From the IMG/VR virus record IMGVR_UViG_3300011952_000012: a stretch of 8,253 nucleotides of DNA; one strand, 5' to 3'. Position numbers and translations under genes: made by a program. This document shows positions 4,033 to 8,253 of this stretch, one piece after another; positions within the stretch are counted from its first letter, which is position 1, and each line of letters opens with the position of its first letter. A model generated the notes under the pieces. That model was not told the DNA's origin and did not search any database. It saw nothing but the letters and a program-made list of their open reading frames with translations. The stretch comes from a virus. Lineage: Duplodnaviria; Heunggongvirae; Uroviricota; Caudoviricetes.

Positions 4033-4262
4033 ATGAACAAAGAAAAAATCGAAGCCTTAATGAGCGTAATATTAAAAGAAGCTGACCCCAAAAAATTTCC
4101 TGAGAAATTATCAGAGGACGCCATCGTATCTTTTTATCGTGCGAACTCCTCTTACCTACATTGTTCAACTTTAAGAGAATGGTTAAGCGGCGAAGCAGAG
4201 CCTTCAGATGAGATACTTGAGGAGATTATGGTTCAGAACAACTGGCGCGCAACTAAATGGTC
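4033..4262 (+). CDS. Hypothetical protein, low-GC moron-like ORF (3' end lost in or near the 10-N run)
   Basis: Only plus-strand ORF with a plausible hydrophilic translation (MNKEKIEALMSVILKEADPKKFPEKLSEDAIVSFYRANSSYLHCSTLREWLSGEAEPSDEILEEIMVQNNWRATKW). Markedly AT-rich compared with flanking phage genes, preceded by an AT-rich region 3890-4030. No clear SD. The ORF-track continuation after the gap is antisense to the lipoprotein signal peptide and is probably not real. Confidence 0.35.
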
Positions 4263-4272
4263 NNNNNNNNNN
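4263..4272. other. Run of 10 N (placeholder gap) between convergent genes
   Basis: Directly visible. Confidence 0.98.
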
Positions 4273-4403
4273 GTAATCTTCGTACCCGGCGCGATCGTCA
4301 CGTGTTTAATGCTGCTGCCGTCAGCGCGAGTCGCTTCGGTGTATGTCGAATGTGTGCAGCCTGCCATCGTGAAGAACGCGACAGCTAAGAGAAGTTTTTT
4401 CAC
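4273..4403 (-). CDS. Putative lipoprotein (N-terminal part; possible spanin or Bor-like outer-membrane lipoprotein), 3' end in or beyond the N-run
   Basis: GTG at 4403-4401 lies 7 nt after the endolysin stop (TAG 4413-4411). Translation V/MKKLLLAVAFFTMAGCTHSTYTEATRADGSSIKHVTIAPGTKIT... has a canonical lipoprotein signal peptide (KK n-region, hydrophobic core, lipobox-like MAG-C). All three minus frames hit stops within about 25 codons below the gap, so the protein is short unless the gap hides more. Confidence 0.55.
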
Positions 4404-4410
4404 GTTTTAC

Positions 4411-4890
4411 CTACGCTTCTGAGATAGATTTCTCAGCATTCACCAATGGAAGTGATTGTGGAACATCCGTTTGACCTGCTGGCCAGCGATAGCCTGTTAC
4501 GCGGGAACGAGGAAAAGCTTTGATATTTACTTCATCTGCCTGGTTGCCCCCCAAAATCATTAAATCCCCGGCGGCATTTTTCCCGACAACAAAACCAACG
4601 TGGCCACCGCCAGACCGAGACAGAATAGCAATGCATCCATAGGCAGGTTCCTTCAGTTCATTACCCCAATCGAGATAAGAATTCGCAGACTCAAAACGCG
4701 TTGAGCGAATACCAACACGTTCCAGCATTGCTCCGGTGAAGGCGGCGCACCATGGTGTTTCGTCATCCTTAATACCGCCGCGTTTGATATCTTTCCAGTA
4801 CTGCACAATTTCTGCAGCATGTTGCTTCCCTTTCATTTCCCGGATGCCGAGATTTTTTCGTGCCTCAATTAGCCATTTAGGATCGGTCAT
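4411..4890 (-). CDS. Putative endolysin: Cys-His peptidase (CHAP / NlpC-P60-like, TIGR02594-like) peptidoglycan hydrolase
   Basis: 159-aa ORF with RBS GGAGA about 6 nt upstream. Candidate catalytic Cys in DETPWCAAFTG and His in GGGHVGFVVG. Sits directly after two small membrane proteins and before a lipoprotein. Start overlaps the upstream stop (TAATG). Confidence 0.6.
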   Translation of the reverse strand: MTDPKWLIEARKNLGIREMKGKQHAAEIVQYWKDIKRGGIKDDETPWCAAFTGAMLERVGIRSTRFESANSYLDWGNELKEPAYGCIAILSRSGGGHVGFVVGKNAAGDLMILGGNQADEVNIKAFPRSRVTGYRWPAGQTDVPQSLPLVNAEKSISEA

Positions 4891-5162
4891 TACCTGTCTC
4901 CTGTTATTTTTGAAATATTTCCTCGTGCCCGCCAGACAGCAATACAGATGGTGAGGTTGAGAAAGAACTCTGCGGGATCAACCTGCGTATATTTCCCGTA
5001 AAAAATTCGTAGGGCTATCCACGCAGCAGACAGAATCGCCAGGTAAGCAGTTAGTGAGATAAAAAAACGATAGCGGCCTGTTTTTTGAAAAAACATCAAC
5101 CGCAGTGCCAGCATCAGACAGATAATTGCATTGGCATTGATGAGGACAGAGTGCAGGGTCAT
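4890..5162 (-). CDS. Small integral membrane protein (holin or antiholin-like), second gene of the lysis cassette
   Basis: 90-aa ORF with about three hydrophobic segments (AIICLMLALRLMFF, FFISLTAYLAILSAAWIALRIF, FFLNLTICIAVW). RBS AAGGGGA about 8 nt upstream. Stop and start overlaps with both neighbours (TAATG) suggest translational coupling. Confidence 0.6.
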   Translation of the reverse strand: MTLHSVLINANAIICLMLALRLMFFQKTGRYRFFISLTAYLAILSAAWIALRIFYGKYTQVDPAEFFLNLTICIAVWRARGNISKITGDR

Positions 5163-5545
5163 TATTTCATCCCCTTATCTGATTTCCATAAACGAGCTTG
5201 TGACATGATCCGCAACAGTGATGTAACGCTGATTACTGATGCAACCAGTGCACCAATGGCGGGAGAGACTTTTACTGTTACGGGAGGGTTCAGGTGACTC
5301 AGCACCGCATTCAGAATACCGGTAATGATGGCTGATGCTGTCTCAGCGCAATACACACCGCCAACAAACGAAATGAGTGCGAAAATAACCTGCTTCCAGA
5401 ATCGATGCTGCCCGGATGACAACACATAGAGAGCTGCGCCTGCCAGCGCACAGATCATCACTGCAGGTGTTGCCTCAGGAAATAACGCAGCAAACGTCAC
5501 CCCCGCCGAGCCAGCAGCAACGCCAGCGGTTAGAGGTTCAGACAT
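5162..5545 (-). CDS. Putative holin (multi-TM membrane protein), first gene of the late/lysis operon
   Basis: ORF track gives 5162..5671, but the ATG at 5545 (MSEPLTAGVAAGSAGVTFAALF...) has an RBS AGGAAA 6 nt upstream and lies downstream of the terminator hairpin; the longer start would run through that hairpin. 127 aa with 3-4 hydrophobic segments and a charged C-terminus (RLWKSDKGMK). Confidence 0.6.
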   Translation of the reverse strand: MSEPLTAGVAAGSAGVTFAALFPEATPAVMICALAGAALYVLSSGQHRFWKQVIFALISFVGGVYCAETASAIITGILNAVLSHLNPPVTVKVSPAIGALVASVISVTSLLRIMSQARLWKSDKGMK

Positions 5546-5561
5546 GATTTTTCCTGATTCA

Positions 5562-5590
5562 GAAACGACAAAACCCCGCCGTGGCGAGGT
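5562..5590 (-). terminator. Rho-independent terminator-like hairpin between the Q-like gene and the holin (tR'-like)
   Basis: Minus strand reads CCUCGC-CACG-GCGGGG (6-bp GC-rich stem, one G-U pair, 4-nt loop) followed by UUUUGUCGUUUCU. In lambda the Q-dependent terminator tR' lies in the equivalent position. Confidence 0.4.
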
Positions 5591-5625
5591 TCTTAGAAAT
5601 TTGGCAACATACCAAATTAGCGTTA

Positions 5626-5654
5626 AATATGGCCTATTTTGTTCGGTTTTGCAA
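5626..5654 (-). promoter_or_regulatory. Candidate late promoter (pR'-like) immediately after the Q-like stop
   Basis: Minus strand TTGCAA (5654-5649), 17-bp spacer, CATATT (5631-5626). Weak match to the sigma70 consensus; proposed from position only. Confidence 0.25.
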
Positions 5655-5657
5655 GCA

Positions 5658-6092
5658 TTATACGCAAACATCGTCTAAATGGTTCTGATAATGATGCAAA
5701 GTTGCAAAAAGTGCCACTTCATCAAGTGCTCTCACCGCCTCTTTCATTCCTACCCAGTGCGGGGAGTATGTTTCGCACCAGGTGGAACGAGAAACAGACA
5801 ACATTCCAGCTAGCGCAGATCCGGCCATCTCCTTAAAATCCTCGCGTTTATTTGCTGCTGCGACCGCCTGCACGGACAACCACACCAACGAAAGCAGGCG
5901 CTTGACTACTTTTCTCTGAGTTGACGCAGAGATGTTTCCTTTATAGCGACTCCAGACAGCCTCACAAATAGCTGTTTGGTGTTTGAACGCCAGGTTACCA
6001 CCGTAGCAATAGCGCAACCACGCCTGCTGGCTAACGTCGAGCGCGTTCACGGCACGGCGCCACGATGAATCAGCGAATTCAAAATCATTCAT
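5658..6092 (-). CDS. Putative late-gene antiterminator (Q-like), 144 aa from the ATG at 6092; may continue upstream across the N-run
   Basis: Open frame with a credible translation (MNDFEFADSSWRRAVNALDVSQQAWLRYCYGGNLAFKHQTAICEAVWSRYKGN...). It is the last gene before the promoter/terminator region and the holin, which is the Q position in lambdoid phages. I do not recognise the sequence as a specific Q family, so the function is inferred from synteny. Confidence 0.45.
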   Translation of the reverse strand: MNDFEFADSSWRRAVNALDVSQQAWLRYCYGGNLAFKHQTAICEAVWSRYKGNISASTQRKVVKRLLSLVWLSVQAVAAANKREDFKEMAGSALAGMLSVSRSTWCETYSPHWVGMKEAVRALDEVALFATLHHYQNHLDDVCV

Positions 6093-6126
6093 CGGCGGCG
6101 CGGGGCGACGTCTGCTGAAACTTTCC

Positions 6127-6136
6127 NNNNNNNNNN
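6127..6136. other. Run of 10 N (placeholder gap) inside the Q-like region
   Basis: Directly visible. Confidence 0.98.
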
Positions 6137-6333
6137 TAAACTGGCGGAACCAGAGCATCAACGGTCCGGTCCTCCAGTTGCACACGATGAATATGTTTGC
6201 GTGGGTATGCGTTTTTATCTGCTGGCGGGTGCTCACACAATGCTTCCAGTTGCCCCTTAGAACCACCAGACAAATCCCGTAATGCAGCACGCAGTTTTAT
6301 GCGGGTATATTCCAATAAATACTCGTTACTCAT
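6137..6333 (-). CDS. Small ORF upstream of the Q-like gene (65 aa visible before the N-run); either a separate small gene or the N-terminal part of the Q-like protein
   Basis: ATG at 6333-6331 overlaps the stop of the YbcO-like gene (TGATG). Translation MSNEYLLEYTRIKLRAALRDLSGGSKGQLEALCEHPPADKNAYPRKHIHRVQLEDRTVDALVPPV then enters the gap. After the gap this frame stops at 6087-6085, 8 nt inside the ATG-initiated downstream frame, but gap length is unknown so frame continuity cannot be judged. Confidence 0.4.
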
Positions 6334-6613
6334 CAGATAAACTCCTCATCGCGCCAGATAGCCAGTGTTCTGAAAACTCCTTCAGCGTGCATCAACAACA
6401 ATGAGTCGTGCTCGTAATCCGTTTTTGTACGCCCGTCGATGGCATCGTGACACGCACTGCAGGCGATAGCGCCCTGCATATCGTGAGGTTTGATGGCTGT
6501 GCCGCACGTTCCGGCGAGGCGGTAGTGAGCCAGTACACTGGTTTCCGGATTGTGATTACGCACACAGGACAAGCGCGACCGCATGCAGCTTTTCTCAGGT
6601 CGATTTTTTTCAT
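6333..6613 (-). CDS. YbcO-like protein (DUF1364 family), with an apparent frame break near the 5' end (possible pseudogene or sequence error)
   Basis: C-terminal 80 residues (...NPETSVLAHYRLAGTCGTAIKPHDMQGAIACSACHDAIDGRTKTDYEHDSLLLMHAEGVFRTLAIWRDEEFI) match E. coli DLP12 YbcO as I recall it (NPETSVLAHIRLTGLCGTGTKP...IACSACHDEID...). The YbcO-like N-terminus MKKIDLRKAACGRACPV is in a different frame, starting at the ATG 6613-6611 that overlaps the upstream stop (ATGA). Confidence 0.6.
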
Positions 6614-7206
6614 GATGTGTAATCCAGCAGCTGCGCGGCAGCATTTTCAGCGGCCTCCTGAGAGGCAAACGTGCGGAACAAAATATAATTCCACAGCACA
6701 TCTAAAACGGCTGAATACAGTTGACCGAACTCAAGATCGTCCATCGCAGCAAACGAGATTGAACGAGGTACGCGCATCAAACTGCCATCCGGCATCTGAT
6801 GAACGTCATAAAACCCAGCTTCCATAATCGCCCAGGCGCGAAACGCCTCGAACGACTTCACCGCACTGATATTCCCCGCGCGCTTTTCCGACTCATCGAG
6901 AAGATACTGATCAGCCAGCTCTGCCATGACATCACCGTGTCCACCGTAATACGCCAGTAACTTAACGTAGCCATGGACCAGTTCGCGCTCCGCAGGAGAA
7001 ATAGCCCCTCCGGACGGATGCCAGTAATCAAAGCCCAGGTTTAGAAGTGAGAAAAATTTACGATGAAACGCGGGATTACGCGCCTGTTTGAAATCTGCAT
7101 ACACAACAGCATCTGGTTTGACTCGTTCAGTCAACCAGCGTTGCGTGTCTGGTGTCGCGGGTATTAGCGAACCGCCGGATACCCTGATAAATGAATGCTG
7201 CGCCAT
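6610..7206 (-). CDS. Conserved phage protein of unknown function (nin-region gene, possibly DUF1367-like)
   Basis: 198-aa ORF with RBS TGGAG about 8 nt before the ATG at 7206 and a globular-looking translation. Stop overlaps the YbcO-like start. Family assignment is a guess from neighbourhood. Confidence 0.7.
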   Translation of the reverse strand: MAQHSFIRVSGGSLIPATPDTQRWLTERVKPDAVVYADFKQARNPAFHRKFFSLLNLGFDYWHPSGGAISPAERELVHGYVKLLAYYGGHGDVMAELADQYLLDESEKRAGNISAVKSFEAFRAWAIMEAGFYDVHQMPDGSLMRVPRSISFAAMDDLEFGQLYSAVLDVLWNYILFRTFASQEAAENAAAQLLDYTS

Positions 7207-7283
7207 GTTTAACTCCAGGTGGCGCGGCAGTGCTCAGAAAATGGTGCCGGGTGTTCAGACCAGCACCAGTATTATACCGCGTA

Positions 7284-7463
7284 TTACGCGTCAGGGGGTG
7301 TAATAGTATATCCAGCTGTTTCTGCCAACTCGAGAAACGCCAGCAGGCTGGCAATCCGCTCGTCGTCGCTGAGGACGCGTACAATCACTACGCGCCCCTC
7401 TTCTCGTTTGATTACAGCCCGGCACGTATCCGGTAATTTGCTGATCGCCTCGTGTGTGTTCAT
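7284..7463 (-). CDS. Small hypothetical protein (59 aa) under a LexA-box promoter; candidate SOS-induced regulator such as an antirepressor
   Basis: ATG at 7463 preceded by SD AGGGGGA about 5 nt upstream (the ORF-track start at 7484 lacks an SD). Translation MNTHEAISKLPDTCRAVIKREEGRVVIVRVLSDDERIASLLAFLELAETAGYTITPPDA. The promoter and LexA box lie 20-55 bp upstream. Confidence 0.55.
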   Translation of the reverse strand: MNTHEAISKLPDTCRAVIKREEGRVVIVRVLSDDERIASLLAFLELAETAGYTITPPDA

Positions 7464-7481
7464 ATTTCCCCCTGACAGAAA

Positions 7482-7501
7482 CACTGTATATATATACAGT
7501 A
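7482..7501. promoter_or_regulatory. LexA operator (SOS box), near-perfect consensus
   Basis: CACTGTATATATATACAGTA matches the E. coli LexA consensus TACTGTATATATATACAGTA at 19 of 20 positions (CTGT-N8-ACAG with an alternating AT spacer). Lies in the intergenic region just upstream of the 59-aa gene. Confidence 0.8.
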
Positions 7502-7519
7502 TTTTTTATCGTATGTCAT
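7491..7519 (-). promoter_or_regulatory. Sigma70-like promoter for the 59-aa gene, -10 embedded in the LexA box
   Basis: Minus strand ATGACA (7519-7514), 17-bp spacer, TATATA (7496-7491). The -10 lies inside the SOS box, the usual arrangement for LexA-repressed promoters. Predicted start about 20 nt upstream of the ATG. Confidence 0.45.
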
Positions 7520-7612
7520 AACATCAAATGCAATGGGGGAATAATGAGCAATTATATTCACCGCGTGAATTTGATTAAACGGTTTATTCCCGGAAAAAAC
7601 GGTTTATGGTTA

Positions 7613-8253
7613 TTATTTTTCATTTCCATAAACATGGGTTAACCATTTTCTAATAGTTGACTCCGCCGGAACGTCAGCATATTTTTTTACGAGAATTTCG
7701 TTAATACGTGCCACCGCCGCACTAACCCGTGCGTGGGGATTATTTGTGAAAAAAACCTCTGCAATCTGTAATGCCTCGTCTTTTAGCCTGTGCTGTGGCC
7801 TCCCTCCGCCCTTTGTTCCCAGATAACGCGCCAGTTGTTTGAACCGGTACGCCACGATTAGTGGCCGCATCATCATATTGAAAAAATCACGTGCATCGTC
7901 GTCCTCTCCTCGCGCTATCAACAGCGCAAAAAACAGGTACGGTATTGTATATACGTCAGGGGAAATCATTACGCGCCTGCACACAGTCGGCGCCAGTGCG
8001 ATCAGTGTGTCTGCCAGCGCGTCGCTCTCTCCTCCACGTTTGTAATACCGGTAGAGTGGTCCTAAGTCGAGTTCACTGGTATTGAATCCAGTCACAGCCT
8101 CACGAACCTCGTCTGCCAGCGCGTTGTAAATCGCCCCTGTACGTTTTGTGTAGAGTCTCCGGGTTGCCCCCCGGTTATCCAGCGCCCGCAGCATGTCAAG
8201 TCGGGTGACAAACGTTTCAGGCCAGTCCTCATAGAATGATCTCATATCCACCT
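7613..8253 (-). CDS. Hypothetical protein (at least 212 aa, probably truncated at the window edge)
   Basis: Long minus-strand ORF with a non-repetitive translation (...RSFYEDWPETFVTRLDMLRALDNRGATRRLYTKRTG...TIRKWLTHVYGNEK). The frame is open to the last base of the window; the ORF-track start is a GTG at 8251 with an ATG at 8245. No family recognised. Confidence 0.65.
   Translation of the reverse strand, partial: VDMRSFYEDWPETFVTRLDMLRALDNRGATRRLYTKRTGAIYNALADEVREAVTGFNTSELDLGPLYRYYKRGGESDALADTLIALAPTVCRRVMISPDVYTIPYLFFALLIARGEDDDARDFFNMMMRPLIVAYRFKQLARYLGTKGGGRPQHRLKDEALQIAEVFFTNNPHARVSAAVARINEILVKKYADVPAESTIRKWLTHVYGNEK

Follow-up and report, generated by a model that had tools for sequence, protein, structure and literature searches.

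The window analysed here, an 8,253-nt stretch of Caudoviricetes DNA (IMG/VR record IMGVR_UViG_3300011952_000012), contains a 59-aa gene that probably encodes an SOS-induced antirepressor acting on a non-cleavable repressor; we put the probability of this reading at about 0.8. Judged from its sequence, the gene is an unannotated short member of the GfoA/FsoA family of small antirepressors, through which Gifsy and Fels-1 prophages of Salmonella respond to DNA damage. The antirepressor system itself is already known, and what is new here is a short member of the family without dinI.

The evidence consists of features observed in the DNA, namely: the ORF, its LexA box, the homology of its product, the conserved synteny of the locus and its association with one type of repressor. 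The sequence-only reading had offered, as one of two hypotheses, that the gene encodes a small antirepressor under LexA control, as in Gifsy-type systems. Homology to FsoA and GfoA, an identical genomic slot, a conserved LexA box and co-occurrence with short non-cleavable repressors all support that proposal. The coordinates of the relevant features are collected in Table 1.

Table 1. Features of the 59-aa gene locus and of the genes that follow it (window coordinates).
Feature	Positions	Strand	Basis and remarks
59-aa antirepressor-like protein (GfoA/FsoA family, PHROG 340)	7284..7463	-	ORF, PHROG, BLASTP, codon bias
Ribosome-binding site AGGGGGA	7467..7473	-	Sequence; GGGGGAAG or GGGAGGG in homologues
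LexA box, core CTGTATATATATACAG at 7484-7499	7482..7501		20-mer scan; 20 nt upstream of ATG
Putative -35 hexamer TTGCAT of the SOS promoter	7528..7533	-	Read from sequence
Putative -10 hexamer GATAAA	7505..7510	-	Read from sequence; 17 nt from -35
Alternative promoter pair ATGACA + TATATA	7519-7514 + 7496-7491	-	Places -10 inside the LexA box
TATAAT, likely -10 of the DUF1367-ybcO-Q operon promoter	7271..7276	-	Conservation
Hairpin GGTGCTGG-TCTGAACAC-CCGGCACC, then ATTTTCTGAG	7243..7267	-	Predicted 5' end of the DUF1367-Q transcript
DUF1367 / irsA homologue	6610..7206	-	Pfam PF07105, E 4e-77; PHROG 319 'NinB/Orf-like'
ybcO (DUF1364 nuclease)	6333..6613	-	Pfam YbcO; frameshifted by a 13-nt deletion between 6569 and 6568
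Q-type antiterminator	5658..6333	-	Pfam Phage_antiter_Q on both pieces; frame cut by masked bases 6127-6136

The 59-aa gene, its LexA box and its putative promoter

The ORF has 59 codons plus a stop codon and begins with an ATG at 7463-7461, preceded by the ribosome-binding site AGGGGGA. When it is compared with homologues that are 76% identical, the nucleotide differences are distributed over codon positions 1, 2 and 3 in the ratio 8:5:24. This is the pattern of a translated gene, and the ORF is under purifying selection as a protein.

The 20-mer that contains the LexA box matches the LexA consensus TACTGTATATATATACAGTA at 19 of 20 positions and its core is exact, while none of 200 shuffled sequences gave a match at up to 3 mismatches. 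That a 59-aa gene lies behind a LexA box, as had been noticed from the letters alone, is therefore confirmed by the ORF, its ribosome-binding site, the box and the coding bias. The box is not peculiar to this copy: CTG-N10-CAG occurs at the same relative position, with an inner sequence that varies, in most of 56 related IMG/VR loci, and the loci that do not have it are mostly cut by a contig end.

Two promoters can be read next to the box (Table 1). In many related loci, TTGCAT or TTGCAC stands 17 nt before a -10-like hexamer beside the LexA box. Whichever of the two promoters is chosen, the box is predicted to cover the -10 or the +1 region.

Protein family, genomic slot and associated repressors

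Scans of the 59-aa protein against Pfam and NCBIfam gave no family match. The protein belongs to PHROG 340 (E 2e-17), as does FsoA (E 1e-26). In direct BLASTP comparisons, it is 49% identical to FsoA over 43 aa (E 2e-10) and, over 51 aa, 33% identical to the protein of GfoA type in phage SEN34; the E value for SEN34/mEp237 is 3e-9. With the GfoA-type proteins it has in common a core, G-x-V-x3-R-x-L-x-DDE, and a C-terminal motif, GY-x-(V/I)-TPP. In an alignment of 8 members, three of which are experimentally characterised or orthologues of characterised proteins, residues G23, R29, D34 and G51 are invariant. The AlphaFold2 model (pLDDT 87) forms one compact helix-hairpin-helix (alpha-beta-beta-alpha) unit, and no solved structure or viral predicted model resembling it was found.

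The reference proteins were identified through published primers. A tblastn search of phage genomes matched Fels-1 among others, and the Fels-1 ORF is STM0898.2n; since the fsoA primers le154 and le162 of Lemire et al. encode exactly the first and last residues of STM0898.2n, this ORF is FsoA. The gfoA primers le117 and le163 match the GfoA-type genes of SEN34 and mEp237, both of which came from the phage collection; an exact-match search of IMG/VR for the gfoA primer sequence found none. GftA was confirmed as STM1020.1n of Gifsy-2 via primers le116 and pp864.

In a set of 5.8 billion proteins, the family has 484 members at E ≤ 1e-3, which form 142 clusters at 50% identity and are all unnamed or 'hypothetical'. 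A word-indexed protein search reached only 5 close relatives, and the family alignment reached further. The suggestion that the protein could be novel is not supported, as the family was described in 2011 (PMC3121763); it has as yet no function in Pfam, NCBIfam or PHROGs.

A GfoA/FsoA-like module of 45-50 residues, for which Pfam has no model, is also present at the C-terminus of some Bro-N proteins (P0191, P0246) and of one P22_AR_N protein (P0237), with significant E values from 1e-6 to 2e-4 against 1.84 billion proteins. The small antirepressors thus look like a free-standing domain of the large Ant-type antirepressors, and the two groups are tied together by this occurrence.

The gene has the genomic position of gfoA and gftA in Gifsy phages. 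In the window, the LexA box is followed by the small gene, DUF1367, ybcO and Q; in Gifsy-2 it is LexA box, dinI, gftA, irsA (DUF1367), ninG and Q, and SEN34 and mEp237 are alike. At all 56 IMG/VR loci with a DUF1367 homologue (63-100% identity), a family ORF ends 66-85 nt upstream of it; these ORFs are usually about 63 aa long and down to about 35% identical to the 59-aa protein. There is no Pfam DinI match in the window, where the small ORF comes directly after the LexA box, and the same layout without dinI is found in 705R4 and BUCT708. The dinI gene is typical of the Gifsy-type module but not essential to it. A different setting is seen in Fels-1, in Klebsiella phages and in Stx phages: there the FsoA-like gene is part of the early-left operon, the repressors are long and of the CI type, and no LexA box was found. 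Literature on irsA/DUF1367 and on Gifsy-1 RtcR yielded nothing bearing on the locus of the 59-aa gene.

One of the loci without dinI stands apart. In Stenotrophomonas phage BUCT708, positions 2440-2760 hold a LexA box, a 63-aa ORF, the hairpin described below and DUF1367, and the box is of the E. coli type, CTG-N10-CAG. The LexA box of Xanthomonadales differs from the E. coli type, so the BUCT708 box is unexpected, and closer attention should be given to the host assignment or to the regulation.

The repressor of the window prophage lies outside the window, and its pairing with the small protein is therefore drawn from near-identical prophages; it should be noted that phages are mosaic. In the prophage of E. 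coli HCP5S3_I2, the immunity region has a 130-aa HTH protein (WP_000853106.1) that faces a Cro-like gene and a YdaT-like gene. This repressor consists of HTH_3 only, without an S24 domain; it is 33% identical to the Gifsy-2 repressor GtgR over its full length (E 5e-23), and its C-terminal LPESEK (LPESE) motif is common to DicA. The same repressor is present in three E. coli prophages whose small proteins are 76-100% identical and whose structural modules differ: of the two further prophages, one has tail genes resembling those of myoviruses and the other a head module of the HK97 type. No other conserved antirepressor candidate was seen in these three prophages.

The association extends to distant relatives. 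Of 35 IMG/VR loci that are more distant and include 10 kb of DNA upstream, 34 have a divergently oriented repressor of 128-163 aa that matches the GtgR/DicA profile from end to end, and all five of these that were scanned for domains are HTH only. Across the repressors, the mean identity is 67% for the C-terminal domain vs 49% for the HTH. In addition, near-identical small proteins (>90%) at loci L084-L125 are paired with repressors whose HTH identity goes down to 19%, while their C-terminal identity is at least 52% and the C-terminal pattern LPxSEK...FxxLFEELL is kept. This suggests that the C-terminal domain of the repressor is the contact of the antirepressor. The divergence of the antirepressor follows that of either repressor domain only weakly (rho 0.17 for the C-terminal and 0.11 for the N-terminal domain), and these values are descriptive only. 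The pairing of near-identical small proteins with divergent HTH domains further suggests a broad specificity, and hints that cross-induction between heteroimmune prophages may be common. The pattern agrees with the published observation that GfoA and GfhA each inactivate two heteroimmune repressors (PMC3121763).

The Q operon and the spacer ahead of it

All recognisable genes of the window lie on the minus strand, the sole exception being an unassigned ORF on the plus strand (4033-4422). Read from its right end, the window has a 212-aa ORF and, after a spacer of 149 nt, the 59-aa ORF, DUF1367, YbcO and the Q antiterminator; beyond Q there are two holin-like genes, a TIGR02594/CHAP-like endolysin gene and terminase. 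The annotation of the DUF1367 gene relates its protein to STM1020/STM2620. The small gene is followed on its own strand by nin-like genes and then Q, just as the sequence-only reading had it. Its further statement, that the genes of this chain mostly overlap at their stop and start codons, is correct in part. The ybcO start overlaps the DUF1367 stop (ATGA), and the C-terminal frame of ybcO meets the Q start in TGATG; between the small gene and DUF1367 there is no overlap but a 77-nt spacer, and within ybcO the chain is broken in the window by a frameshift. The 13 nt in question (ACTGTGCGTATCC) are absent in an alignment with three intact relatives, and the N-terminal frame of ybcO stops at 6392, about 60 nt short of the Q start codon. 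Either translational coupling into Q could be weakened by this deletion, or the deletion could be an error of assembly.

Masked bases occur in four runs (1156-1310, 2239-2248, 4263-4272 and 6127-6136), which interrupt the large terminase gene, the region past the endolysin gene, and Q. It is only because of a 10-base mask that Q appears as two frames; the gene is intact and encodes 223 aa in the HCP5S3_I2 prophage, which is 98.9% identical to the window over 4273-8253. The HCP5S3_I2 prophage combines lambda-like head genes with P2-like tail genes, and its terminase gene contains insertion sequences. Both this copy and the window prophage may be decaying, which leaves the assignment of the small gene unaffected.

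Some neighbouring ORFs were also recorded. The 212-aa ORF (7613-8251, minus strand) belongs to PHROG 5215, of unknown function, and is without a Pfam or NCBIfam match; it adjoins the SOS promoter on its upstream side, is kept in all E. coli relatives examined, and borders a variable cargo region with ImmA/IrrE, LprI, DUF262 and ORF6N genes that differ by strain. Downstream of the endolysin gene, a 56-aa ORF (4233-4403, minus strand) begins with MKKLLLAVAFFTMAGC, a lipoprotein signal with a lipobox, and from this sequence may be a spanin-type component. It is overlapped on the opposite strand by the plus-strand ORF of 129 aa mentioned above, and the mask at 4263-4272 interrupts both.

Three features of the 77-nt spacer ahead of DUF1367 are kept in 30 diverse loci, namely: a TATAAT, a hairpin and, downstream of the hairpin, a conserved block TTCTGAGCAAnTGCTGCGC. 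Five of the six positions of the TATAAT are invariant or nearly so among these loci, whether or not it overlaps the stop codon of the small ORF, which it contains in most relatives. The hairpin has a predicted dG of -12.4 kcal/mol. Its 9-nt loop is nearly invariant (consensus ACUGAACAC or ACTGAACAC, with an invariant TGAACA core), and in 6 of the 8 pairs of its stem both partners change. Covariation scored 0.439 vs 0.201 in shuffles (0 of 500 shuffles reached it), and slid controls gave at most 0.12. The whole element (7233-7276, minus strand) recurs at related loci of E. coli, Salmonella and other hosts (L004 at 11706-11740, L005, L006, L008 and L014-L069). Rfam has no match for the hairpin; the only one nearby, RsaE at 30.7 bits vs a threshold of 79, is due to chance. 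A boxB/nut-type site of the kind repeated near early promoters was also considered, and is argued against by the occurrence of the element once per prophage.

Gifsy-2 has a corresponding CATAAT and hairpin at a distance of about 1.6 kb upstream of Q. The transcription start of antQ in Gifsy-1 has been mapped 1,600 nt upstream of antQ, at the head of a four-gene operon, SL2582-SL2579 (PMC4825925, Hershko-Shalev et al.), and from the distance and the gene count we infer that the first gene of this operon is the irsA/DUF1367 homologue. Because the conserved TATAAT coincides with the antQ start, the Q chain has its own promoter just past the antirepressor gene.

In the E. coli group the hairpin is followed directly by AUUUUCU, and there the pair may stop part of the SOS transcripts; in most relatives the U-tract is poor and offset. 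The palindrome that had been singled out earlier at 7271-7291 is a weaker candidate: CGCGTA-A-TACGCG (7278-7290) folds at only -6.1 kcal/mol and is not kept in relatives of about 81% DNA identity, and we do not regard it as a terminator.

The hairpin element is the most unusual by-product of this analysis. Its candidate roles could include those of an mRNA 5' stabiliser, an attenuator or a put-like antitermination signal. A more specific and, in our estimate, unlikely reading is that TATAAT, hairpin and TTCTGAGCAAnTGCTGCGC block together form a promoter-proximal regulatory RNA, so far undescribed, by which the irsA-ybcO/ninG-Q operon is gated. If this were true, DNA damage could act on Q by a second route that is independent of the repressor, via transcripts from the LexA promoter that cross the element.

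Proposed mechanism, alternatives and known systems

The mechanism that we favour takes LexA binding, the contact between the two proteins and the effect on induction from the published behaviour of the family, i.e. LexA control and a stable repressor-antirepressor complex of A2B2 stoichiometry (PMC3121763). In E. coli K-12, Rem and DicA follow the same logic (PMC10448788). In the lysogen, LexA bound to the box overlapping the promoter would keep the 59-aa gene off. DNA damage would activate RecA and lead to self-cleavage of LexA, upon which the 59-aa protein would be made. The protein is expected to bind a short, non-cleavable HTH repressor of the GtgR/GfoR and DicA type, probably through the conserved C-terminal domain of the repressor and probably dimer to dimer. 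With the repressor off its operators, the early operons would fire, and Q and the lysis genes would follow in the normal order.

Some observations temper the assignment. The 59-aa protein is without the N-terminal 20-25 residues of GfoA, GftA and FsoA, its similarity to GftA and Rem is weak, and its model matches no solved or predicted structure. Furthermore, FsoA is dispensable for Fels-1 induction (PMC3121763), and a relaxed BLAST with FsoA picked out three K-12 proteins that failed to derepress dicBp (PMC10448788). Membership of the family alone is thus no guarantee that a protein has a role in inducing its own prophage.

The other hypothesis of the sequence-only reading was that the SOS promoter reads through to Q and so couples DNA damage to late genes independently of the repressor. 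In its strong form, the LexA promoter would mainly serve to read through the small gene into DUF1367-ybcO-Q, and the 59-aa protein would be incidental. The arrangement permits this, in that all the genes are on one strand with the Q start about 1.1 kb downstream, a consensus scan reported no intrinsic terminator on that strand between 7284 and 5658, and the U-tract after the hairpin is poor and offset in most relatives; in addition, dinI, the antirepressor gene and irsA have been described as one LexA-regulated operon (Lemire et al., PMC3121763). Yet the Q chain is preceded by a conserved promoter-like element of its own, which is kept across 30 loci and coincides with the mapped antQ start of Gifsy-1 (PMC4825925), and in the E. 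coli group the hairpin with AUUUUCU could terminate part of the SOS transcripts. Nor is read-through needed for induction, as gftA of Gifsy-2 expressed from PBAD at another locus suffices (PMC3121763), and early Q without replication would presumably be wasteful for the phage. The purifying selection on the small ORF as a protein also speaks against an incidental product. Read-through as the main function is thus unsupported, and we consider it improbable.

Alternatively, the 59-aa protein could be a working antirepressor that acts on the repressor of another resident prophage, while its own prophage is induced in some other way. FsoA, its closest validated relative, does act in this manner on GtgR of Gifsy-2 (PMC3121763), and the pairing of small proteins more than 90% identical with repressors whose HTH identity falls to 19%, at a C-terminal identity of at least 52%, fits a protein that works across immunity groups. 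Unlike fsoA, however, the 59-aa gene has its own LexA box and occupies the Gifsy slot, and the associated repressor, being without an S24 cleavage domain, needs some antirepressor, for which no other conserved candidate was seen in the three E. coli prophages; cross-talk as the relevant role is accordingly quite doubtful. That the slot is occupied by chance by a small SOS protein of another kind, for instance a DinI-like modulator of RecA or an antitoxin, seems to us very improbable. The absence of a Pfam or NCBIfam family and of a structural neighbour would suit such a protein, as would the dinI gene that Gifsy phages carry at the head of the same operon. But the 59-aa protein has no Pfam DinI match and no similarity to Tum/DinI, its similarity to validated antirepressors is significant, and there is no toxin-like partner next to it, the neighbour being DUF1367 at 56 of 56 loci.

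An SOS-induced antirepressor acting on its prophage's own non-cleavable repressor thus remains the preferred reading, and it has consequences beyond this locus. The link to the validated FsoA and GfoA gives a usable annotation to the gene and to its 484 or more relatives that are 'hypothetical' in databases. DNA related to the window prophage is present in 438 of 5,426 complete genomes, and for this common E. coli prophage the predicted route of induction is via LexA and an antirepressor, not via cleavage of the repressor. The prediction is relevant to how DNA-damaging antibiotics induce prophages and to the cross-induction of co-resident prophages. The version of 59-63 aa without dinI can be viewed as a minimal antirepressor module.

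Among known systems, the closest in organization are GfoA and GfhA of Gifsy-1 and Gifsy-3 (Lemire, Figueroa-Bossi and Bossi 2011, PMC3121763). Each is a small single-domain protein under a LexA box, encoded directly upstream of irsA/DUF1367 and Q, and the associated repressor is short and without a cleavage domain. They differ in length (about 80 aa vs 59 aa, which corresponds to the N-terminal residues absent here), in the start codon (UUG or GUG vs ATG) and in the presence of dinI before the antirepressor gene; in addition, the window derives from a prophage of an E. coli host with lambda-like head and P2-like tail genes. By sequence, the closest validated relative is FsoA of Fels-1, but fsoA lies in an early-left operon under a cleavable CI-like repressor, has no LexA box, and encodes a protein that its own prophage can do without and that acts on the Gifsy-2 repressor (PMC3121763).

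GftA of Gifsy-2 occupies the same slot with the same LexA-operon logic and retains the invariant G, R, D and G. It matches the family profile (hhalign E 1.6e-5, probability 79%) but belongs to PHROG 4847, has no pairwise BLASTP similarity and reaches PHROG 340 only at E 0.23; from these comparisons, it appears to be a distant relative in another subfamily. Rem of the cryptic prophage Qin, which was found by PSI-BLAST from GfoA and FsoA (PMC10448788), is likewise a small protein that relieves a short repressor of the DicA type, but its profile similarity is marginal (hhalign E 0.0023, probability 13%) and the DNA upstream of rem shows no evident LexA box. The comparison with Tum of coliphage 186 that had been drawn earlier stands as an analogy, since Tum is a LexA-repressed antirepressor that blocks DNA binding by the repressor. 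As a homologue it is rejected (hhalign E 0.45, probability 0.1%), and Tum has 146 aa with a DinI-like C-terminal half, vs 59 aa without a DinI domain here. Finally, compared with the large Ant-type antirepressors that carry Bro-N or P22_AR_N, the 59-aa protein corresponds to the C-terminal module alone, without the DNA-binding N-terminal domain.
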